Origin: a bacterium | Lineage (GTDB): Bacteria > Acidobacteriota > Blastocatellia > HR10 | DNA length: 18,501 nucleotides | Assembly (NCBI GenBank): GCA_041640655.1 | Contig: JBEPZV010000043.1 | Coordinates: 1 to 18,501, forward strand | Direction of reading: 5' to 3' | Part shown: piece by piece, positions 8,757 to 18,501 of the stretch | How positions within the stretch are numbered: position 1 is the stretch's first letter | Layout: the number at the start of each line of letters is the position of its first letter | Translations under genes and position numbers: made by a program | Notes under the pieces: model-generated | Database searches by the model: none | Seen by the model: only the letters and a program-made list of their open reading frames with translations | What the model was told of the DNA's origin: nothing

Positions 8757-11700
8757 GTGAAGCGATGGCTCTGGGTGCTCGTGCTCGGTCTCGTGCTTCC
8801 GCTTCGTGGGGATCGGACGCCTCCGAGGGCTGCTGAACCGGCGGGGGGGATTCGATTGGCGGATCGCCTGATCCGCGAGAGCGCACCCCTTCGGGCAAAG
8901 GGGAGAGTCCTTGCTCTGGATGCCGTCCGATCTGAGGTCTGGCGCGATCCCGCGACGACGTTTGGCATCCTCCGTCCGCTCTCTCTGGAGATCGAGGGCG
9001 AGCCGGGGCTTCGGACGCTTTTCGAGCGGCGTGGGCTCGTTCCCCGCTCGCTCGCCGTGGCCGATTTCGATGAGGACGGACGGCCGGATGGCGCAGCGGG
9101 GTTCCTCGCGCCGTGGGGGGGAGCGCTCGTCCTCTCACCTGGCGGCGTCTTGGAGTTCGAGGCAGTCGCGAATCGGGTGAGCGCGCGTGCGTTCGCCGTG
9201 CCGGCGGTGCCGAAAGAGCTTCAGGCGGGCGATCTGGATGGCGACGGGCATGCGGACATCGTCTTCGCCGATGGGATCGAAGCGCGCGCGTTCGTTCTCC
9301 TGGGCGATGGTCGGGGTGGATTTGCTGATCCGCGGGCGATCGCGCTGCCCGTTGCACCCTCCGTCCTGGTCCTGGCGCCTCGGAGTGGTCCGCCCCTCGG
9401 TCTGTTGAATCGGACGATCCTTCGTGTGCCAGTTGATCTGATCGTCGTGGGGGAACGAGAGGGTCGGTGGCACGTCGCTCGCGTGCGGGACGGCAGGGTG
9501 AACGAGGTGGCGCTGCTTCCGGTCCCTCCCGCGTGGCACGCGGTGGCTTCGCTCGTGACGGATTGGGATGGCGATTCTCGGGCTGATCTCCTTATTGCCG
9601 GAGGCGATCGGCTCCTCGTCTTCTCCGATCTCTCGCGAGGGTCGCTCGCGCATCCTGACATCATTCCGCTTGAGCTCTCGGTTCGAGCGCTTGTGGCGGG
9701 CGATTTCGATGGGGATCGGCGCGCGGATCTCGCTCTGTTGGATGAATCCGGACTTCGCGTGGACATTTTGTGGAATGCTTCCTTTGAGCGGACGTCGCTG
9801 AGGCTCTCCCGCGCAGCACATGCACTCGCGTCCGCACACCTGGATGGTGACCGCAAGGCCGATCTCCTCGCGCTCGCTGCGGGGGTGGCGGAGCTCGCCG
9901 TGTGGTCGGGCGACGATCTCCATCGAGCGAAGGGGCCGACGGACGCGCTGGCTCAGGACGTCGAGGCTCGGGCGCATTCGATCGCTTTAACGGCGGGGTG
10001 TCATCCTCTGGCTGCCTTCTCGATCGCGAGGCATGGCGTGGATGATCTCCTCATCGTGAATCGCCAGGAGCCGGGCCAATCGTGTCCGAGCGCGTTTCAT
10101 CGGCTGACGGCGCAGGCGAACGAGATCCTCGTCACGACGACGAGCGATAGCGGTCCCGGCTCGTTGCGACAGGCGCTGCTGGATGCGAACGCGAGCCCAG
10201 GGCCGGATGTGATTCGCTTTCGCATTCCGGCCGGGGACCCAGGCTTTGCGGCCGGCGTCTTCACGATCCGGTTGCAGAGCCCGCTGCCGGAGATTCGCGG
10301 GGGGGGCATCACGATTGATGGGGCGAGCCAAATCGCCTTCACGGGAGCGACGAACGGAGATCGTCCGGTCATTCTCTTGAGCGGCGAGGTCGCGGGGTCC
10401 GCCTCCGGGCTCGTCCTCGCCAGCGATCGCAACGTCGTGCGTCGGCTCATCCTCACGCGCTTCATCGGTGCGGATCAGGCGGCCTTGGTGATCCGCGGGG
10501 GGGCGGAGAACGTCATCGAGGGATGCCTGATCGGGACGAACGCGACCGGGGCTGGCCCGGCGGGGAACACGACGGGCGTGCTCTTGATCGAGGGCGCGCG
10601 GGAGAACCGAATCGGGGGGATGGAGGCCGACGCGCGAAATGTGATCTCGGCCAACACGACGGGCATTCTCCTTCGCGGGGCGACAACGACGGGCAATCTC
10701 ATCCTGGGGAATTTCATTGGGACGACGGCCGATGGCGAGACGGCGCTCTCCAATGTGGACGGCGTGCGCATCGAGAGCCAAGCGAGCGGGAATCGGGTGG
10801 GAGCGCCGGGCGCGGGCAATGTCATCGCCGGGAGCGTGGGCAATGGGATATGGATTCGCGCGCCCGGCAGCTCCGATCGGAATATCGTTCAGGCGAATCG
10901 GATCGGCGTGAGCCCCAGCGGCGCGCCGCTCGGCAATCGCATCTCCGGTGTCACCATCAGTAGCGGCAGCGAGAATCTGATTGGGGGGACGGAACAGGGC
11001 GAAGGGAATCTCATCGCCTATCAGCGTGGCAGCGGCGTTCAGATCACCGGGGCCTCGCGTGGCAATCGCGTTCTGGGCAATGTGATCCGCAACAATGGCG
11101 AATTGGGGATTGATCTGCGCGGCGACGGACCGACTCCCAATGACCCGGGCGACGCCGATACGGGACCGAATGATCTGCAGAACTTCCCAGTGATCGCGAC
11201 CGCTGTGCAGCGACCGGGGCGGCTCGTCCTCATGGGAACGCTCGATACGGGGGCAGGGGATATTCGGGTGGAGTTCTTCGCCAATACGGCGTGCCATGCT
11301 TCGGGGTTCGGAGAAGGGGAGATCCCCATCGGCGCCATCACCGTGCGCGCGACGGGCGATGCGCGGAATCCGGCCGCGTTCACGGTCGAGCTGCCTGTGA
11401 CTGCGCGGGGCCAGGTGATCACGGCGACGGCGACTGATGCCGTCGGGAACACCTCGGAATTCTCCCCTTGCGTGTCGGTGAATGCCGCGCCGATCGCCGA
11501 TGCGGGTCCGGATCAACTCGTGGACGAAGGTACGGAAGTGACGCTGGATGGGACGGCCAGCCGCGATCCCGACGGAGATCCGATCGCCTTCAGTTGGCGA
11601 CAAGTGGCGGGACCAAGAGTCGCCCTCTCGGACGCGACATCGCCGCAGCCGCGCTTCATCGCTCCGGTCGTGGACCCCTCGGTGCCGCCGCCGGTTCGAC

Positions 11701-12632
11701 TCGTTTTCGAATTGATCGTGAGCGATGGGCGCGCGGAGAGCGATCCCGATCTGGTGACCATCACCGTCAATCGGCGCCCGATCGCCAATGCCGGGCCGGA
11801 TCAGAGAGTGGACGAAGGGACGACGGTCACACTCGATGGGACAGCGAGTCGCGATCCGGATGGCGATGTGCTGACCTTCCGCTGGCGGCAAGTGGCGGGG
11901 CCAACGGTGGCGCTCTCGGATCCGACGTCGCCGCGCCCGCAGTTCACGGCTCCGGTCGTCGCGCCAACTATCCCGCCGCCGGTCACGCTGGTGTTCGAAT
12001 TAGTCGTGAGCGATGGGCGGCTCCTGAGTGCACTGGATCAGGTGGTGATCACCGTCAACCGGCGTCCGATCGCCAACGCAGGGCCGGATCAAACTGTGCC
12101 CGATGGTGCGCTCGTCACCCTGGATGGAACGCGCAGTTTCGATCCCGATGGCGACGGGATCACGTTTCGGTGGACGCAAACGGCCGGACCCTCGGTGACG
12201 CTCACGGGCGCGACGACGCCGCGGCCAAGCTTCACGGCGCCGAACCTCGGCGTGACGGAGGCGACGTCGGTGCGCTTGACCTTCTCGCTCGTCGTGAGCG
12301 ATGGGCGGTTGAGCAGCGCTCCGGATACTGTGGATGTCATCGTGCAGAACCTCATTCGTCTGGATGACAGCCGTCGCAGCGGCAATCGGCTCACGCTCAA
12401 TCTGGCGACGAACACGTTCGAGTTTCGCGCGGATCGCCTCAATCGAACCTTCACCGGGACGATCACGGAGATCGCGCGCGGCGTCGGCGATGGCCATCAG
12501 ATACGGATCGTGGGGACAGGACCGGAGGGGATCCGGCTCACCGTGAATATTGACATGCGTCGGAACGTCGCCACGGCCGTCCTCATGACCGCGCGTGAGA
12601 CGCTGACGCTCTTCACCGGTGAGGTGCGCTGA
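8757..12632 (+). CDS. Large secreted multidomain protein: FG-GAP/VCBS repeats, parallel beta-helix, 3 PKD-like domains and an unknown C-terminal domain (adhesin-like)
   Basis: SD GGGAGGG, GTG start, signal peptide. Five or more DxDxDGxxD repeats (DFDEDGRPD, DLDGDGHAD, DWDGDSRAD, DFDGDRRAD, HLDGDRKAD). Beta-helix region: VTTTSDSGPGSLRQA, GNxIG repeats, NDPGDADTGPNDLQNFP, GNTSEFS. Three PIAxAGPDQ...DPDGD...VSDG domains. Confidence 0.9.
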   Translation: MKRWLWVLVLGLVLPLRGDRTPPRAAEPAGGIRLADRLIRESAPLRAKGRVLALDAVRSEVWRDPATTFGILRPLSLEIEGEPGLRTLFERRGLVPRSLAVADFDEDGRPDGAAGFLAPWGGALVLSPGGVLEFEAVANRVSARAFAVPAVPKELQAGDLDGDGHADIVFADGIEARAFVLLGDGRGGFADPRAIALPVAPSVLVLAPRSGPPLGLLNRTILRVPVDLIVVGEREGRWHVARVRDGRVNEVALLPVPPAWHAVASLVTDWDGDSRADLLIAGGDRLLVFSDLSRGSLAHPDIIPLELSVRALVAGDFDGDRRADLALLDESGLRVDILWNASFERTSLRLSRAAHALASAHLDGDRKADLLALAAGVAELAVWSGDDLHRAKGPTDALAQDVEARAHSIALTAGCHPLAAFSIARHGVDDLLIVNRQEPGQSCPSAFHRLTAQANEILVTTTSDSGPGSLRQALLDANASPGPDVIRFRIPAGDPGFAAGVFTIRLQSPLPEIRGGGITIDGASQIAFTGATNGDRPVILLSGEVAGSASGLVLASDRNVVRRLILTRFIGADQAALVIRGGAENVIEGCLIGTNATGAGPAGNTTGVLLIEGARENRIGGMEADARNVISANTTGILLRGATTTGNLILGNFIGTTADGETALSNVDGVRIESQASGNRVGAPGAGNVIAGSVGNGIWIRAPGSSDRNIVQANRIGVSPSGAPLGNRISGVTISSGSENLIGGTEQGEGNLIAYQRGSGVQITGASRGNRVLGNVIRNNGELGIDLRGDGPTPNDPGDADTGPNDLQNFPVIATAVQRPGRLVLMGTLDTGAGDIRVEFFANTACHASGFGEGEIPIGAITVRATGDARNPAAFTVELPVTARGQVITATATDAVGNTSEFSPCVSVNAAPIADAGPDQLVDEGTEVTLDGTASRDPDGDPIAFSWRQVAGPRVALSDATSPQPRFIAPVVDPSVPPPVRLVFELIVSDGRAESDPDLVTITVNRRPIANAGPDQRVDEGTTVTLDGTASRDPDGDVLTFRWRQVAGPTVALSDPTSPRPQFTAPVVAPTIPPPVTLVFELVVSDGRLLSALDQVVITVNRRPIANAGPDQTVPDGALVTLDGTRSFDPDGDGITFRWTQTAGPSVTLTGATTPRPSFTAPNLGVTEATSVRLTFSLVVSDGRLSSAPDTVDVIVQNLIRLDDSRRSGNRLTLNLATNTFEFRADRLNRTFTGTITEIARGVGDGHQIRIVGTGPEGIRLTVNIDMRRNVATAVLMTARETLTLFTGEVR
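11478..12341 (+). repeat. Three tandem 288-bp intragenic repeats encoding 96-aa PKD-like domains
   Basis: Units start at 11478, 11766 and 12054 (exact 288-nt period). Units 1 and 2 are visibly more similar to each other than to unit 3. Confidence 0.92.
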
Positions 12633-12740
12633 CGCGAAGCGGCGCATGTCGGAGAAGGACTTTCGGCATTGTGGGAGCGAAGCCTTCGTGGCGCGATCGC
12701 GGGGCGAGACGGCGATCGGTTCATCTTCGGGGAGGAGGAC

Positions 12741-15368
12741 ATGGCAGTTCGATCTCCCGTGCGGACGCTCGTTCTGGTCGGGCTTCTTCTGGTGAATGGA
12801 CCGTGCCTGTTGGAGGGCTGGGCGCAGGAGCGGCGCGCACCGGTTGAGTCGGCGAATCAAACGGCTGCGACGACGACGGGCGGGACCAGTACAGGCCTCT
12901 TTCTGACGTTCAGTCCGCGGACGCTCCGTCGAGGCGAGTATACGCTGAGCGCCTCCTGGAACAATTTCGATCGCGATCCGGGTGATGTGGACATCAATCA
13001 GATCCCGGTCAGCTTCACCCTGGGACTGACCAATCGGCTGGAGCTGTTTCTGACGGCGAACGTCTTTCAGCAGGTGACCTCGCGGCAGCCTTTCGCACTT
13101 TCGGGCTATCAATTTCACGGCGTGCGCCAGGCCTTTGGTGGCGATCCGTTCGTCGCCTTCGGCGCTCCCGTTGGAGGTCGTGAGACGGCAGCGGCGTTCT
13201 TCCCCGTGAGTGGGGCGCGGTTGGGGGGAATTCTGCCTCCGCCGGGGAGCTTCTTCGGCCCTGCTCTGCTCGCCGATCGCCCGAGCTTCGTCCATGAGTG
13301 GCCTTTCTTCGGTCCGGCGACGTTTCTCTCGCGCGACATGGGCTTTGAGATCGCGCGTTCGGCCAACGGCATGGGAGACGTGACCGTCGGCCTGAAGGCG
13401 GCGCTCACGGAACCAGCGGGCTCATTCCCCCTGGCGCTGGCCGCCGTGTTGCGCCTTCCTTCGGCGCGGCATCTGGAAGCGCTCGCGCGCGGTCGCAGCT
13501 CGGGCGCGACCGATGTGGGCATCGTCCTGATCTCCGGTCAGAATTACCTGGGTCACCGCCTCCGCGTCGTGCAGAACATCGGGTACGTTCGCTCTGGAGA
13601 TCCGAAGCTGAGCGGCGTGAAGCTCCTGGATCGGCGCGATCAATTGCTGCTTCATGCGGGCGTGGAGATCGCTCCCGCTCAATGGCTCGTACTCGTCGCC
13701 GAATGGGCGAACGCGATCGCCGTCTCTTCGGGGACACCCAGTCTGAACGCCATCAATCCATCCGATCTGATTCTCGGCGCGCGTTTCTACGGATATGAGG
13801 GGCGCCTTCAGGTAGGCGGTGGGTGGCGACGGCTCTTGAATCAGTCGGATGGGCGCACGATCCCCGTCTTCCAACCCGGCGTGGGCGTGTCCGTGTTCGA
13901 CCTCGGTTCGCGAGATGCCAACGGCTTCATCGTCAACGTCGCGCTGGCGCGCCGCGCTTCGATCCTGCCTCCGCCTCCGCCGAATCGTGCGCCGAGCGTC
14001 ACGCTCTTTGTGGACCGCGCCGAGGTGCGCGATGGGGAGCGCGTGACTTTCGAGGCTCGCGCCTTCGATCCCGATAACGATGTGCTCACCTACACGTGGG
14101 CGATTGAACCTTCGGTCCCGCGCGAGGCCGTGCAGGCCGTGGGCGTGCCTCCGGGGAATCGCATCGCGCTCGATACGACGGGATTGAATCCGACGGCGGG
14201 AGCCCCACCGCGCACGTTCACCATCACCGTGCGCGTCGAGGATGGGCGTGGGGGGACGGCTTCGGATCGGCGCGCGATCGTGGTGACGTCGCCACCACCG
14301 CCTCCGCCTCCGCCACCACCACCCCCTCCACCGCCGAATCGTCCCCCGGTGATTCAGGAGATCGAGATCGCGCCCGTGGGAGCACCACAAGTCCCCGGAC
14401 AGATCACCGATGGTGATCTCGTGCGCGTTCGCGCCATCGCCCAAGATCCGGATGGCGATGTGCTCGTCTATCGCTGGAGTGCGACCGCCGGGCGATGGGT
14501 TGGCATCGGCAGCGAGATCACGTTCGATACGGCGGGGATCACGGTCGGCCCCGGAGGGCCGCCCGTCACCGTGACCATCACCGTGACGGTGGATGACGGT
14601 CGAGGAGGGACCGAAACGCGCTCGCGCGCGATCACCGTCGTCGCCGTGAAGCGCCCGGAGCCCATCCGGTTGCCCGCGCTCTTCTTCGCGCGTCCGAACG
14701 CGGCGCGCATCACCAATCTGCACAAGGCCATTCTCGATGACGCGGCCGATCGGTTGCGACAAGATCCGCGCGCCACGCTCGTCATTGATGGGCATCAAGA
14801 TCGCGCCGAGCGATCGGGCGTCGCCCGCACGCGAGCGCGCAACGCCGCCGACTATCTGATCCGACAGCGAGGTCTTGATCGCGCTCGCATTCGGATCCGG
14901 GATTTCGGCGCACGACGTCCTCATGAGAGTGGACGGCGGTCGAGGAATCGGCGCGTGGAGCTGTGGATTCTCCCAGCCGGCGCCGAGCTGCCGCCCGATG
15001 AGGCCGGAAGACCGCCAGAGGCTCAGAGGCACCAACGCGAGCCGGAGGCGTCAGCCGTGCGCGCATCGGCCGATCCGATGGACTCGCGTCTTGCTCAGGC
15101 GCTTCCGGTCACGATGGCTTCTTCGGAGCGGCCGGTCGGTGAAGTTCGTCGTCGTCCCCTTCGCGTGACGGCGCCTTCGGCAGCTCAACATCTACCGTCG
15201 GGCATCGCCCCCGATTCGTCCCCCTCTGTGCGAGAACGCCTTGCGGCGGATTCCCGCGCGCGGCTCTCACGGCGAGCGAGCCGCGCGAGGGCCGGTCGTG
15301 TCCGGCGAATCCGGACGGTCACGGTGACGTCTCCTGAGCGACTTCATCTGGCCCGCCGCCTTCGGTGA
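12741..15368 (+). CDS. OmpA-family envelope protein: N-terminal putative beta-barrel, two Ig/PKD-like domains, polyproline linkers, OmpA_C domain, basic tail
   Basis: SD GGAGGAGG, ATG 12741, signal peptide. GGTSTGLF...RTLRRGE and amphipathic strands. Two NRxP...DPDxDVL...V(E/D)DGRGGT domains. OmpA_C motifs IDGHQD, RARNAADYL and NRRVE. Confidence 0.85.
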   Translation: MAVRSPVRTLVLVGLLLVNGPCLLEGWAQERRAPVESANQTAATTTGGTSTGLFLTFSPRTLRRGEYTLSASWNNFDRDPGDVDINQIPVSFTLGLTNRLELFLTANVFQQVTSRQPFALSGYQFHGVRQAFGGDPFVAFGAPVGGRETAAAFFPVSGARLGGILPPPGSFFGPALLADRPSFVHEWPFFGPATFLSRDMGFEIARSANGMGDVTVGLKAALTEPAGSFPLALAAVLRLPSARHLEALARGRSSGATDVGIVLISGQNYLGHRLRVVQNIGYVRSGDPKLSGVKLLDRRDQLLLHAGVEIAPAQWLVLVAEWANAIAVSSGTPSLNAINPSDLILGARFYGYEGRLQVGGGWRRLLNQSDGRTIPVFQPGVGVSVFDLGSRDANGFIVNVALARRASILPPPPPNRAPSVTLFVDRAEVRDGERVTFEARAFDPDNDVLTYTWAIEPSVPREAVQAVGVPPGNRIALDTTGLNPTAGAPPRTFTITVRVEDGRGGTASDRRAIVVTSPPPPPPPPPPPPPPPNRPPVIQEIEIAPVGAPQVPGQITDGDLVRVRAIAQDPDGDVLVYRWSATAGRWVGIGSEITFDTAGITVGPGGPPVTVTITVTVDDGRGGTETRSRAITVVAVKRPEPIRLPALFFARPNAARITNLHKAILDDAADRLRQDPRATLVIDGHQDRAERSGVARTRARNAADYLIRQRGLDRARIRIRDFGARRPHESGRRSRNRRVELWILPAGAELPPDEAGRPPEAQRHQREPEASAVRASADPMDSRLAQALPVTMASSERPVGEVRRRPLRVTAPSAAQHLPSGIAPDSSPSVRERLAADSRARLSRRASRARAGRVRRIRTVTVTSPERLHLARRLR
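14292..14336 (+). repeat. Polyproline tract (15 consecutive Pro codons)
   Basis: CCN x15 between the two Ig-like domains, with mixed synonymous codons. Confidence 0.95.
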
Positions 15369-15370
15369 GG

Positions 15371-15398
15371 GCGCCTGTGGAGGGGCGGGCGTTTTTAT
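15371..15398 (+). terminator. Intrinsic terminator after the OmpA-family gene
   Basis: Stem GCGCCTGT/GCGGGCGT (with G-U pairs) followed by TTTTAT, 2 nt after the stop. Confidence 0.65.
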
Positions 15399-15407
15399 AC
15401 ATTTTCG

Positions 15408-15437
15408 TTGACAAAGTCGCCCTGCGTGGGCTATACT
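15408..15437 (+). promoter_or_regulatory. Near-consensus sigma70 promoter of the sulfite reductase operon
   Basis: TTGACA (15408-15413)-N18-TATACT (15432-15437), with AT-rich sequence upstream. Confidence 0.8.
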
Positions 15438-15447
15438 ACCGCCCGAC

Positions 15448-15615
15448 ATGACGCAGTCGGGAGGGCAGACGATGGCGTGTGGCGAACGGAGGGAGCTGAG
15501 GACGCGGGGTGAGGTGATGGAGCGCCGCGTCATGAGGACTGTAGCCTTCGTCTCCCGAATGCCTTGGGCATCGGAGGCGGGGAGCGCCTTCGCCGACGAC
15601 GTCTGTCGTCGCTGA
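15448..15615 (+). CDS. Putative leader peptide ending ...FADDVCRR (uORF)
   Basis: 55-aa open frame beginning just after the promoter. In-frame ATGs at 15448, 15472 (SD GGGAGGG), 15517 and 15532. Cys codon is third from the stop and lies in a hairpin. Confidence 0.5.
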   Translation: MTQSGGQTMACGERRELRTRGEVMERRVMRTVAFVSRMPWASEAGSAFADDVCRR

Positions 15616-15711
15616 ATCCCCACGTCGGACGATCCCACGATCGTCAGGTGAGTGCCTTCCTGTGGGGGTGTTGTCTCCCTCACCGGCGTGCATTCGGTCT
15701 GTAGTCGGACT

Positions 15712-17415
15712 ATGGACGATCTTCGACCGGGAGAGCAGAAGAGAGAGACGAAAGCCGCGCGGATCGAACGGCTGAAGGCGGCGAAGAACCCGTGGGCGCA
15801 TTTCGAGGAGATCCTGCGGTTCGCCGAGAAGGGGCATGAGGCGATCCCGCGCGAATGGCTGGAGACGTACTTCCGGTGGTGGGGGGTCTACACGCAGGGC
15901 GATGGTCGGGGGGTGTTCGGGCAGGCGACGCCCTATTTCATGGTGCGCATTCGCATCCCGAATGGTCTGCTCGTCTCGCATCAATTGCGGACGATCGCGG
16001 AGGTGGCCGAGCGCTACGCTCGGGGATTCGGGGACATCACCGTGCGGCAAAATATCCAGCTGCATTGGGTGCGCATCGAGGACATGCCCGACCTCCTCTT
16101 TCGTCTCTCTCGGGTCGGGCTGACGACGATGGGGGCTTGCGGCGATGACACGCGCAACATCACGGGTTGTCCGCTGGCGGGGATTGATCGCGATGAGATC
16201 TGCGATGCCTCACCTCTTGTCCTGCACGCGACGCGGATGTTGGTGGGGAACGAGGCCTTTTACAATCTGCCGCGCAAGTTCAAGATCTGCATCACGGGCT
16301 GTCGCGTGTGGTGCTCCTATCCGGAGATCAACGACATCGGGTTGACGGCCGTCGAGCGCATGGGACCCGGGGGGGAGCGGGAAGTTGGCTTCTCGGTGCG
16401 CGTGGGAGGGGGGCTCTCGACGGCCCCGCATTTCGGCGTGCGTCTGAACGCATTCGTTCGGTGGTCGCAGGTCTTGCCCGTCGTGCGGGGGATCGCCGAG
16501 ATCTTCCGCGATAGCGACGTCTTGCGCCAGGACCGGGCGAAGGCGCGCTTGAAATTCCTCTTCCTCGAACACGGGTGGACGGCCGAGCGCTTTCAAGAGG
16601 AGCTGGAGCGGCGCCTCGGCGTCCGACTTGATCCCGCCGTGGATGAGGAGGTGCCGGAGAACGTCTATCGGGATCATGTCGGCCTCCATCCGCAGAAGCA
16701 GGCGGGGTATTACTATGCGGGCTTCGCGATCTTGCGTGGGCGGATCACGGCCGAGCAAATGCGTCGCGCAGCCGATCTGGCGGATCGGTACGGCGATGGG
16801 CAATTGCGGACGACGAACATGCAGAATCTCGTCGTGCTCAACATTCCGGAGGCGCGCTTGGGCGCTTTTCTGCGGGAGGTCGAGGAGACGGATCTTCGGT
16901 TGGAGGCCTCTCCGTTCTGGCGTGGGGTGATCGCCTGCACGGGGACGGAGTTTTGCAAGCTGGCGATCGCTGAGACGAAGGCTTTTGCGCGGTGGGTGGT
17001 GGAGGAACTGGAGCGACGGCTGCCCGGATTCGACGAGCCGCTTAAGATCAACGTCAACGGGTGCCCGAATTCCTGCGGGCAGCATTGGATCGCCGATATC
17101 GGGCTTCAGGGGTGCAAGATGAAAGTCGGTGGGGAGCAGGTGGATGCTTTCGACATCCTCCTGGGAGGAGCCGTTGGTCGGGAGGCGACGTTCACGCGGC
17201 GCGTGGGCCTGAAGGTCCCGGCGCGTGAGATCCCGGACGTCCTGGAGCGGTTGCTGCGTGAGTACCTCCGGCGTCGGAGTCCGGGCGAGCGGTTTCATCA
17301 ATTCTGCCGGCGTCATAGCGAGGCGGAGCTGCGGGCCATGCTCGCTGGGGAAGCGGTTGAACCCGCGGTCGCTCCGCCGTGGCCGGGTCCACCGCCGCAC
17401 GGCGTGGAGGGATGA
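15712..17415 (+). CDS. Ferredoxin-dependent siroheme sulfite/nitrite reductase, SirA-like
   Basis: FRWWGVYTQ, TVRQNIQLH, GACGDDTRN, NLPRKFK, and siroheme/4Fe-4S ligand motifs ACTGTEFC and GCPNSCGQ. Start at ATG 15712 is inferred; it has no clear SD. Confidence 0.93.
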   Translation: MDDLRPGEQKRETKAARIERLKAAKNPWAHFEEILRFAEKGHEAIPREWLETYFRWWGVYTQGDGRGVFGQATPYFMVRIRIPNGLLVSHQLRTIAEVAERYARGFGDITVRQNIQLHWVRIEDMPDLLFRLSRVGLTTMGACGDDTRNITGCPLAGIDRDEICDASPLVLHATRMLVGNEAFYNLPRKFKICITGCRVWCSYPEINDIGLTAVERMGPGGEREVGFSVRVGGGLSTAPHFGVRLNAFVRWSQVLPVVRGIAEIFRDSDVLRQDRAKARLKFLFLEHGWTAERFQEELERRLGVRLDPAVDEEVPENVYRDHVGLHPQKQAGYYYAGFAILRGRITAEQMRRAADLADRYGDGQLRTTNMQNLVVLNIPEARLGAFLREVEETDLRLEASPFWRGVIACTGTEFCKLAIAETKAFARWVVEELERRLPGFDEPLKINVNGCPNSCGQHWIADIGLQGCKMKVGGEQVDAFDILLGGAVGREATFTRRVGLKVPAREIPDVLERLLREYLRRRSPGERFHQFCRRHSEAELRAMLAGEAVEPAVAPPWPGPPPHGVEG

Positions 17416-17419
17416 AGGC

Positions 17420-17713
17420 ATGAGGCGACGGGGTATCGTCTTGTTCGGCTCGCTCGCAAAGGCGCGGGACGGGAGATGGTCGTGTCCTCGCATGTGCATG
17501 TGTCGGGGCGCGCCAGCAGCGGGCCTCCGTGGGAGGGAGCGGCGAGGCGAGGATCACGGCGAGGCCCGCTCTCGGGAATTCCCGAAGCGGGCCTTTTCAG
17601 TGAGGAGGGAGAGCGATGGAGAACAGGCAGCAGTTGGAACACTTGCTCATCGGCCTGCCCTCGGAGGTGCAGGCGGAGATTCGTCGGTTTGCGGAGGAGA
17701 TCGAGGCCCTTGA
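17420..17713 (+). CDS. Putative Cys/Met-rich leader ORF (MRRRGIVLFGSLAKARDGRWSCPRMCMCRG...)
   Basis: ATG 4 nt after the upstream stop with SD GGAGGG. Cys codons at 17483, 17495 and 17501; Met at 17492 and 17498. The frame continues out of frame into the next gene. Confidence 0.5.
   Translation: MRRRGIVLFGSLAKARDGRWSCPRMCMCRGAPAAGLRGRERRGEDHGEARSREFPKRAFSVRRESDGEQAAVGTLAHRPALGGAGGDSSVCGGDRGP
17518..17597 (+). terminator. Attenuator: antiterminator (17518-17570) versus intrinsic terminator (17561-17597)
   Basis: GAGGCCCGCT (17561-17570) pairs either with upstream AGCGGGCCTC (17518-17527) or with downstream AGCGGGCCTT (17586-17595). The terminator has inner stem TCGGG-AATT-CCCGA and is followed by a short U-tract. 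Confidence 0.75.
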
Positions 17714-18501
17714 GGCCGGACGGCGCGATCCGGAGGATTTCAAGCGCTTCCGACTGGAGAACGGCGTCTATGGCATTCGGGGGGCGCCGGACCGGCACAT
17801 GGTGCGGGTGAAGGTGCGGTTTGGCCGGATCACGCCGGAACAGTTGGAGGCGCTGGCGGACATCGCCGATCGGTTCACGCCGAATCGGCGCGTGCATCTG
17901 ACGACGCGGCAGGACATCCAATTTCACGGCGTGCGGCGCGAGGATGTCCCTGTGGTACTTGCGCACATCGCGCGCGCGGGGCTGACGACGCGCGAGGCGT
18001 GTGGCAACACGGTCCGCAACGTCACGGCCTGCGCGCTGGCGGGCATCTCGCCGACCGAGGTCTTCGATGTGACGCCTTATGCGGATGCCGTCTCGCGCTA
18101 TTTCCTGCGCCACCCCATCGCGCAGAATCTCCCGCGAAAGTTCAAGATCGCTTTCGAGGGGTGTCGTGAGGACCATGCGCGCGTGCGGATTCACGACATC
18201 GGAGCCGTCGCCACCGTGCGCGAGGGGCAACGCGGGTTCCGCTTGTACATCGCCGGAGGATTGGGGGCTCAGCCGCGCGCGGCCGAGGTGCTCGAGGACT
18301 TCACGCCAGCTGATCTCTTGATCCCCACCTGTGAGGCCGTGCTTCGCATCTTCGATCGGCATGGGGAGCGCCGACCCGAGCATACGTTTCGCATGCGGGC
18401 GCGGATGAAGTTCCTGGCGCGGCAGTGGGGGATCGAGCGGTTGCGCGAGGCCATTCTCGCCGAGCGCCGCGTGCTCCTGGCCACGCGGTCGGGACGAACG
18501 C
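17616..18501 (+). CDS. Second siroheme sulfite/nitrite reductase (3'-truncated; absent from ORF track)
   Basis: SD GAGGAGGGAG, ATG 17616. My translation: MENRQQLEH...FKRFRLENGVYGIR...HMVRVK...HLTTRQDIQFH...TREACGNTVRNVTAC...NLPRKFKIAFEGC...GGLG...RARMKFL. Open to the window end. Confidence 0.92.
   Translation, partial: MENRQQLEHLLIGLPSEVQAEIRRFAEEIEALEAGRRDPEDFKRFRLENGVYGIRGAPDRHMVRVKVRFGRITPEQLEALADIADRFTPNRRVHLTTRQDIQFHGVRREDVPVVLAHIARAGLTTREACGNTVRNVTACALAGISPTEVFDVTPYADAVSRYFLRHPIAQNLPRKFKIAFEGCREDHARVRIHDIGAVATVREGQRGFRLYIAGGLGAQPRAAEVLEDFTPADLLIPTCEAVLRIFDRHGERRPEHTFRMRARMKFLARQWGIERLREAILAERRVLLATRSGRT

Follow-up and report, generated by a model that had tools for sequence, protein, structure and literature searches.

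A candidate cysteine-responsive leader-peptide transcription attenuator of a sulfite-reduction operon, conserved across Blastocatellia

The classical leader-peptide transcription attenuators are the enterobacterial trpL, hisL, leuL, thrL, pheL and ilvL. Here we describe a candidate attenuator with cysteine control codons that lies between two genes of the NIR_SIR reductase family (reductase 1 and reductase 2) in an acidobacterium of the class Blastocatellia. The DNA analysed, hereafter "the window", is an entire 18.5-kb contig (18,501 nt; contig JBEPZV010000043.1 of assembly GCA_041640655.1) from the metagenome-assembled genome (MAG) of a hot-spring acidobacterium, 89.8% complete and with a genome GC content of 64%. 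To our knowledge, the regulation of sulfur assimilation in Acidobacteriota is essentially unknown. The closest described systems come from other lineages. In mycobacteria, polycysteine leaderless short open reading frames (ORFs), collectively the "Cys ribulon", were shown to regulate translation through sequestration of the ribosome-binding site (RBS) (Canestrari et al., bioRxiv 10.1101/834739), and mycobacterial cysteine leader work is also cited in PMC13236596. The uORFC-8-2 motif (uORF, upstream ORF), found before cysS in Rhodobacterales, is a predicted ribosome-mediated attenuator (Brewer et al. 2021, PMC8632094). Candidate cysteine leader peptides precede cys operons in Actinobacteria, for which the authors report an absence of terminator hairpins (Seliverstov et al. 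2005, PMC1262725), and attenuators without an assigned function have been predicted in Acidobacteriota (PMC2965389). Our search of the full-text literature gave no report of a cysteine attenuator in Acidobacteriota or before sulfite reductase genes.

A first-pass annotation of the window, made from its letters, had proposed a cysteine- and methionine-sensing attenuator at this site, with Actinobacteria as the best-known home of cysteine leaders and nothing comparable known to be described in this lineage; cysteine leaders are indeed on record in Actinobacteria (PMC1262725, 10.1101/834739), and the statement on this lineage agrees with our search. The proposed layout was of the trp/his type, in which a 2:3 helix competes with a 3:4 terminator helix for control of read-through into reductase 2, and comparative evidence supports both the layout and the control. 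We put at roughly 0.8 the probability that the element is a cysteine-responsive, ribosome-mediated leader-peptide transcription attenuator belonging to a Blastocatellia-wide family and controlling an assimilatory sulfite-reduction operon, a reading that is built on sequence comparison.

All features of the element lie on the forward strand. A Shine-Dalgarno sequence (SD), GGAGGG at 17406-17411 inside the end of reductase 1, stands 8 nt before the ATG at 17420 that opens the leader ORF (17420-17713), just as first annotated, and the seven control codons C-P-R-M-C-M-C follow at 17483-17503 (TGT 17483-17485, CCT, CGC, ATG, TGC, ATG, TGT 17501-17503), which amounts to TGT, TGC and TGT plus two ATG. 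The M-K-A-stop mini-ORF ATGAAGGCATGA that had been noted at 17412-17423, overlapping the reductase 1 stop through ATGA, is present. Segment 2, the 5' strand of the antiterminator, spans 17512-17531 with the core AGCGGGCC at 17518-17525; the stretch of it first recognised, AGCGGGCCTCCGTG at 17518-17531, does start 14 nt past the last cysteine codon. Segment 3 (17555-17576) is common to antiterminator and terminator and can pair with either segment 2 or segment 4; as had been proposed, CACGGCGAGGCCCGCT at 17555-17570 is complementary to segment 2 over 10 bp plus a further 4 bp across a GC bulge, and the 2:3 fold of 17510-17575, with segment 4 not yet made, reaches -32.5 kcal/mol. The intrinsic terminator (17562-17597) was likewise recovered as a GC-rich 14-bp 3:4 hairpin (17562-17594; -27.6 to -30.1 kcal/mol) followed by TTTT at 17594-17597, just 5' of the SD of reductase 2, and with its four T the U-tract is as short as had been remarked.

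The features expected of an attenuator can be read at two levels, that of the window and that of 31 leaders, which comprise the 5 of the window's genus and 26 further ones from other families, all upstream of reductase 2 orthologues. A short SD-led ORF, whose translation is predicted, precedes the regulated gene; end-product codons are clustered, cysteine taking 3 of 7 codons here, while 31/31 leaders have 3-7 cysteine codons grouped in frame and a terminator downstream; an intrinsic terminator separates leader and structural gene in all 31; and an antiterminator that would exclude the terminator, with its 5' strand just past the stalled ribosome, is found at the family level. The anatomy of the window alone is not beyond chance, and its significance comes from conservation: genome-wide, 1964 sequence windows in six frames hold at least 3 cysteine codons in 7, and 25 of these then have a hairpin and TTTT.

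A homologous intergenic region was recovered from four of the six other genomes of the genus (we label the genome of the window G000; the others include G001, G002, G004 and G006). All five sequences have an ATG, placed -4 to +4 nt from the reductase 1 stop, whose frame leads into the cysteine block, and the leader SD region GTGGAGGG is likewise conserved in 5/5. The first ~20 codons of these leaders diverge freely while the cysteine cluster stays in frame, and the block TCGTGTCC..GCATGTG.ATGTGT and segments 2, 3 and 4 are near-invariant; even the 12-nt in-frame deletion of G006 leaves C-S-C-M-C. The mini-ORF, by comparison, is confined to G000, G002 and, as M-I-stop, G001 in the genus alignment, and is not a conserved part of the element. 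Leaders of relatives are 39-45 codons long, and those of G001, G004 and G006 stop between segments 2 and 3. As first annotated, the leader of the window has no stop before the terminator and stays open to the TGA at 17711-17713, overrunning the reductase 2 start out of frame. This oddity is true here and is not part of the design, since the other 30 of the 31 leaders have a stop: its absence is a one-base difference, TAG to GAG at 17537-17539, unique among the 31 leaders, and G002, 94% identical to the window, has TAG exactly at the GAG of the window. Contigs from four DNA runs, three of them possibly the source of the window DNA and one from a separate study, are identical to the window over 17300-17800, including the GAG at 17537, which is therefore not an error private to one assembly. 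One of these runs (X3) also holds an extra low-depth contig in which 17416-17558 is replaced by 139 other letters with both flanks matching; it represents a co-occurring relative whose leader region has diverged.

Beyond the genus, 45 of 151 Blastocatellia genomes searched at the protein level have the reductase. The search yielded 24 new loci, of which 23 could be assessed (in G098 the flank is 46 nt, too little for assessment) and 21 carry a leader of 3-7 cysteine codons with a strong terminator; among the 23, G062 and G034 have no adjacent cysteine leader upstream of the reductase gene. In G062 (locus L207), the region 5' of sir instead holds several copies of a ~40-nt element that contains GCACGC..TAGCGTGC-like inverted repeats. 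In two genomes of another family in the same order (G010 and G011), as in two further Blastocatellia MAGs (L018 and L019) and a metagenome contig (L072), a TTGACA-type promoter has the reductase 2 orthologue as its first gene, and the leader, A-A-C-M-C-C or A-C-I-C-T-C-P-C, is followed by segment 2, a stop and a terminator with 4-7 T. Leaders of the other families lie ~20-90 nt behind a sigma70-like promoter of this sort. Because the element follows its own promoter there, it is best read as the ancestral 5' leader of the sir-cobA-cysG-cysH operon; the position behind a NirA-like reductase gene is specific to the window's genus. The intra-operon location that the first-pass annotation had seen as part of the element thus stands for this genus and not for the family, in which other members have their own promoter and G007, from the window's own family, carries its leader (R-C-M-C-C-C-P-M) behind a TauE gene.

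The family falls into three unrelated stem sets, AGCGGGCC/GGCCCGCT, GGCGGTGGGCT/AGCCCACCGCC and GGAACCGG/CCGGTTCC, each of which keeps both 2:3 and 3:4 pairing. The first belongs to the group of the window (group A, 10 sequences) and the second to G007, whose stems, GGCGGTGGGCT and AGCCCACCGCC, differ from the rest, whose stop lies 30 nt before segment 3 and which was kept separate, so that the alignment holds 30 leaders. The third is that of group B, which comprises 20 of the 21 new leaders (all but G007); here TGGAACCGG serves as segment 2, giving W-N-R when translated, and CCGGTTCCA as segment 3. The leader stop of group B (L210-L231) is usually part of a conserved ATTGAGAT motif halfway along a 55-64-nt spacer, and this motif may sit in a small extra hairpin. 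In every member of the family a GC-rich hairpin is directly followed by a T-run of 3-8 nt.

The boundaries of the family were also drawn from searches at a wider scale. A metagenome pattern scan (GGGCC..GCCCGCTNTCG..GCGGGC) matched at least 120 stretches, and of the 80 loci among the matches listed, one (L072) is a family member and 79 are chance matches. Among 56 sir-like loci on genome contigs, 9 have a short ORF with at least 3 cysteine codons in 6 (L013, L015-L019, L022, L023 and L040), a threshold that missed L014; the loci from Planctomycetia, Omnitrophota, Nitrospinota and archaea among the 56 showed no such ORF except L040. One of the 9, L022 from Terriglobia, has C-C-G-L-C-C upstream in a flank of only 287 nt. 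L021, from a MAG labelled Solibacteraceae, and L023 combine a cysteine short ORF with a terminator, yet neither has a 2:3 duplex better than shuffles (93 and 34 of 300, respectively), and both were excluded from the 31 leaders.

The spacing of the parts is conserved as well. Of the 30 aligned leaders, 29 have 9-18 nt between the last cysteine codon and segment 2. The stop codon starts 9-27 nt past segment 2 in 28/30, the others being G026, with its stop just before segment 2, and G000, which has none; the end of the stop lies 21-41 nt from segment 3 in the same proportion (28/30; 71 nt in G026, G000 having no stop). The footprint of a bacterial ribosome extends roughly 12-15 nt to either side of the P site. 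Given this footprint and the geometry, a ribosome stalled on the cysteine codons would leave segment 2 free, one that runs on would sit over segment 2 and the spacer during synthesis of segment 3, and the stop would keep the latter from reaching the terminator. In group B, the 9-bp antiterminator has 90% of its cells paired over 20 sequences, against 16-66% with the partner slid, and covaries at 3 pairs with 10 cells changed on both sides, where 0 of 500 shuffles reach either the 10 cells or the covariation score. For the 15-bp antiterminator of group A (10 sequences), 87% of cells are paired against 34-49% with the partner slid, and in 9/10 no more than 3 of 300 dinucleotide shuffles equal or beat the 2:3 duplex, the window being the exception. 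One position of group A is informative, a nucleotide bulged out of the terminator hairpin that is base-paired in the antiterminator, where 6 sequences have a U-A pair and G006 has G-C. For group A, RNAalifold yields just the terminator as consensus, with 2 compensatory pairs.

A second element of the same design is found in the same genome. On another contig of G000 (C13, ~1684-1950; locus L189), a cysteine leader attenuator precedes cysM, a JAMM/Mec-like gene and a CysO/MoeZ-like fusion. Its leader has the SD GAGGA and reads M-A-M-M-C-C-C-C-R-T-T-G-G-S-P-A-V-V-Q-T-L-V-S-stop (MAMMCCCCRTTGGSPAVVQTLVS*), its antiterminator pairs segment 2 CTCTCCGGCGGTGG with segment 3 CCACTGCCGGAGAG, and its terminator ends in 7 T. 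It is conserved with unchanged geometry in 8/8 genomes of the family (7 of the genus plus G007), in all of which at most 1 of 300 shuffles gives a 2:3 duplex as good or better. The remaining 23 of the 25 genome-scan candidates with cysteine codons, hairpin and TTTT were not attenuator-like on inspection. The cysM-Mec-CysO genes correspond to the thiocarboxylate route to cysteine of Mycobacterium tuberculosis. The C13 element serves as an internal positive control for the cysteine-codon attenuation predicted in this lineage, and the sir and cysM operons together form a small putative regulon.

Sensing of both cysteine and methionine had been proposed, and the two amino acids fare differently. 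Cysteine is present in 31/31 leaders and is the predicted conserved common signal. A methionine codon lies within -3 to +1 codons of the cysteine run in 25/31 leaders and is absent from the cluster in the other six (for example C-I-C-T-C-P-C in L018); methionine sensing is possible on these counts, which, like those of cysteine, are inflated over the 31 leaders by relatedness. Since usually no SD precedes the methionine codon beside the cysteine run, it is probably not a start codon. Codon choice is also skewed, with 119 TGT and 13 TGC among the cysteine codons of the 31 leaders against a TGT fraction of ~0.31 in the long frames of the genome, which has a single tRNA-Cys(GCA); the leaders thus favour the wobble-read TGT, and this should sharpen the response.

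From the sequence anatomy, conservation, covariation and gene context, all of which are established directly, we infer the ribosome stalling, kinetics and cysteine response of the following scheme. A ribosome would translate the short leader behind RNA polymerase; in this genus it would probably be one arriving from the NirA-like gene, because the stop of that gene and the start of the leader are separated by no more than 0-5 nt. When Cys-tRNA is scarce, the ribosome would stall on the cysteine codons at 17483-17503, codons that in the family are mostly UGU and would be read by wobble by the single tRNA-Cys(GCA). The stalled ribosome would leave segment 2, whose start is 9-14 nt beyond these codons, free, so that 2:3 would form once segment 3 is made, no terminator would arise and transcription would read through into reductase 2. 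With ample cysteine, the ribosome would cross segment 2 to the stop in the spacer, which in relatives is placed 21 nt or more ahead of segment 3; 2:3 pairing would then be blocked, the 3:4 hairpin and U-tract would form and transcription would end.

Several results weigh against this scheme. The copy in the window differs from those of relatives in having no leader stop before the terminator (present in the other 30 of the 31 leaders), two mismatches in the antiterminator compared with G002 and G006, and a U-tract of four T, against 7 T in the cysM attenuator of the same genome. The 2:3 duplex of the window, in its GC-rich context, is equalled or beaten by 40 of 300 dinucleotide shuffles. Covariation of the group A antiterminator is not above shuffles, because the stems hardly vary; of the conservation and covariation that the first-pass annotation had proposed to test in alignments, the cysteine codons are kept in 31/31 leaders and stem covariation is seen in group B, but not in the window's own subgroup. 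RNAalifold on group A found no conserved 1:2 (anti-antiterminator or pause) hairpin; in single-sequence folds segment 2 pairs with 17447-17457, and in g5 a hairpin encloses the cysteine codons. Lastly, equilibrium folding with ribosome masks did not separate "stalled" from "at stop": once segment 4 is included, every masked state except three has the terminator as its most stable fold, and with segment 4 absent, segment 3 pairs upstream in almost every state, including "ribosome at stop". Thermodynamics alone thus does not demonstrate a switch, which would have to be kinetic.

It is from the window-level differences that the most serious alternative is built, namely that this copy is a decayed switch that no longer senses cysteine, in which ribosomes that meet no leader stop would pass over segments 3 and 4 and prevent termination whenever the leader is translated, and the hairpin would be no more than a weak partial terminator or an RNA-stabilising element between the reductase genes. 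Its points are the one-base stop loss, with a base that is identical in contigs of four DNA runs, the two 2:3 mismatches relative to G002 and G006 in a duplex no better than 40 of 300 shuffles, and the short U-tract; yet the cysteine codons, segments 2-4 and spacing are all intact in a region 94% identical to the stop-bearing G002, and whether a ribosome would arrive at segment 3 before the hairpin depends on transcription-translation coupling. Both parts of this alternative strike us as doubtful, if well worth keeping in mind. Short of decay, the lost stop may let non-stalled ribosomes enter the terminator of this species' copy and raise basal read-through, which would make the putative attenuator leaky.

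An extension of the attenuator reading, which we regard as speculative and rather unlikely as a whole, would make the genus element an intra-operon relay: the leader would be translated solely by ribosomes handed over from reductase 1, would sense Met-tRNA as well as Cys-tRNA charging through its interleaved methionine codons, and, in this species, through the loss of its stop would allow any translating ribosome, whether stalled or moving, to suppress the terminator. If the handover were true, read-through would integrate translation of gene 1 with the supply of sulfur amino acids.

The remaining alternatives place the control elsewhere. Mycobacterial poly-cysteine short ORFs act by translation attenuation (bioRxiv 10.1101/834739), and by analogy stalling here would expose the RBS of reductase 2, with the hairpin governing translation instead of transcription; the segment 2 of G000 and G002 contains CCTCC, a potential SD partner. 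That motif is not conserved in G001, G004 or G006, however, the SD at 17602-17609 lies outside the 3:4 hairpin, and the GC-rich hairpin with its T-run of 3-8 nt in every member is the signature of an intrinsic terminator, so that we hold such a mechanism to be improbable. More doubtful again is a functional cysteine-rich micropeptide (for instance a metal or Fe-S factor for the reductases) beside a hairpin that terminates or stabilises in the usual way: the ORF keeps its frame and adjoins genes for Fe-S/siroheme enzymes, but outside the cysteine run the peptide is kept only over the RNA stems, as in the W-N-R encoded by TGGAACCGG, its N-terminal parts are unrelated between lineages, the number (3 to 7) and spacing of its cysteines vary, and the cysM operon, which is unrelated, has a leader of the same design. 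A ligand-, tRNA- or protein-binding RNA (riboswitch, T-box or regulator site) with incidental cysteine codons is scarcely credible, since the conserved structured 5' or intergenic RNA ahead of sulfur-metabolism genes that would speak for it matches no Rfam family at gathering score in the whole window (17300-17750 gives only chance-level matches, E >= 1.6) and what is conserved across lineages is an in-frame cysteine run and helix geometry, not an aptamer sequence or fold. We also rejected a REP-like palindromic mobile repeat of this genome, a 451-nt query matching only itself in G000; the segment 3 core occurs once in the genome.

Returning to the attenuator and the genes that it would control, reductase 2 has its SD, GAGGAGGG, at 17602-17609 and starts at ATG 17616; the feature (17602-18500, forward strand) is assigned by Pfam and truncated by the contig end. 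In G001 and G006 the genes 3' of reductase 2 encode a uroporphyrinogen-III methyltransferase, an N-terminal siroheme synthase module and an APS/PAPS reductase (adenosine or phosphoadenosine phosphosulfate), and in G001 a TauE-family protein is additionally present in the operon. Reductase 2 is on this evidence the predicted first structural gene of a regulated sir-cobA-cysG(N)-cysH-tauE operon, whose putative content in these two genomes is the sulfite-to-sulfide branch of cysteine synthesis. Reductase 1 (15712-17415, forward strand; TGA 17413-17415) is a NirA/SirA-like siroheme-[4Fe-4S] reductase with the Pfam domains NIR_SIR and NIR_SIR_ferr. The longest ORF would begin at GTG 15652, and the likely start is ATG 15712, as suggested by the alignment with G001. 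Both reductases are NIR_SIR proteins, with a mutual identity of 33%, and neither reaches any NCBIfam equivalog cut-off. The closest solved relative of reductase 1 is 1zj8 (NirA of M. tuberculosis; 333 bits, against 157 bits for reductase 2), an enzyme reported to be a sulfite reductase; reductase 1 itself may reduce either sulfite or nitrite.

The sole sigma70-like site found in 12000-18501 is a promoter at 15395-15437 (forward strand), with a T-rich upstream stretch, TTGACA, an 18-nt spacer and TATACT; it agrees with the sigma70 consensus at 11/12 positions and is near-invariant in G001 and G006 in an alignment of three genomes of the genus. It has the look of a strong promoter preceded by an UP-like element. 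Transcription in this genus most likely starts at this predicted promoter and would pass a conserved 47-codon ORF and reductase 1 before reaching the attenuator. The 47-codon ORF (15472-15615, forward strand), between promoter and reductase 1, keeps its frame and C-terminus (..PWASEAGSAFADDVCRR*) in G001 and G006 with synonymous changes, and a Pfam search of it matched zero families; it ends in a GACGAC-GTCT-GTCGTC palindrome. Further 5' of the sulfur operon, 8757-15368 encodes two very large secreted or surface proteins, one with FG-GAP, PKD and Big_9 repeats and the other with PKD, Big_9 and OmpA domains.

If the attenuator reading is true, classical attenuation would be extended to cysteine, for which the examples in the searched literature are otherwise translational (mycobacteria) or concern a tRNA synthetase (Rhodobacterales); a small ribosome-read cysteine regulon (the sir and cysM operons) would exist within one genome; and an annotation rule would follow for dozens of unannotated short ORFs. 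Two 94%-identical species that differ in the leader stop also provide a natural experiment that tests the purpose of this stop.

Set beside the known systems, the family is alike to the Cys-run short ORFs upstream of cys operons that the Actinobacteria study describes, and differs in that the terminator and antiterminator are its best-conserved parts, whereas that study reports no terminator hairpins. With uORFC-8-2 it shares conserved uORF cysteine codons and a terminator stem with a U-run, whereas the Rhodobacterales motif has two tandem cysteine codons inside its first stem, precedes the gene for cysteinyl-tRNA synthetase, belongs to Alphaproteobacteria and is unrelated in sequence. The mycobacterial Cys ribulon resembles it in having unannotated Cys-run short ORFs before several cysteine-pathway operons per genome (here sir and cysM-mec-cysO/moeZ). 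The mycobacterial ORFs are leaderless and without an intrinsic terminator in that account, while the leaders here are SD-led, with the RBS outside the hairpin and a terminator/antiterminator pair; membership of the leaderless class was rejected on the same ground, the leader having an SD and sitting behind a gene or ~20-90 nt behind a promoter. Compared with the trpL/hisL type, what differs is the predicted sensing of cysteine, the occurrence in Acidobacteriota and the lack of a detected conserved 1:2 hairpin, to which are added, in this genus, control codons interleaved with Met, Pro and Arg and a leader start that abuts the stop of the upstream gene, and, in this species, the absence of the leader stop. 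The position behind a gene, the interleaved Cys/Met codons and the lost stop are local peculiarities. What the family shares with the trpL/hisL type is the SD-led ORF with clustered end-product codons, a segment 2 just past the ribosome footprint, mutually exclusive 2:3 and 3:4 helices, a terminator ahead of the first gene and, at the family level, a stop in the spacer.

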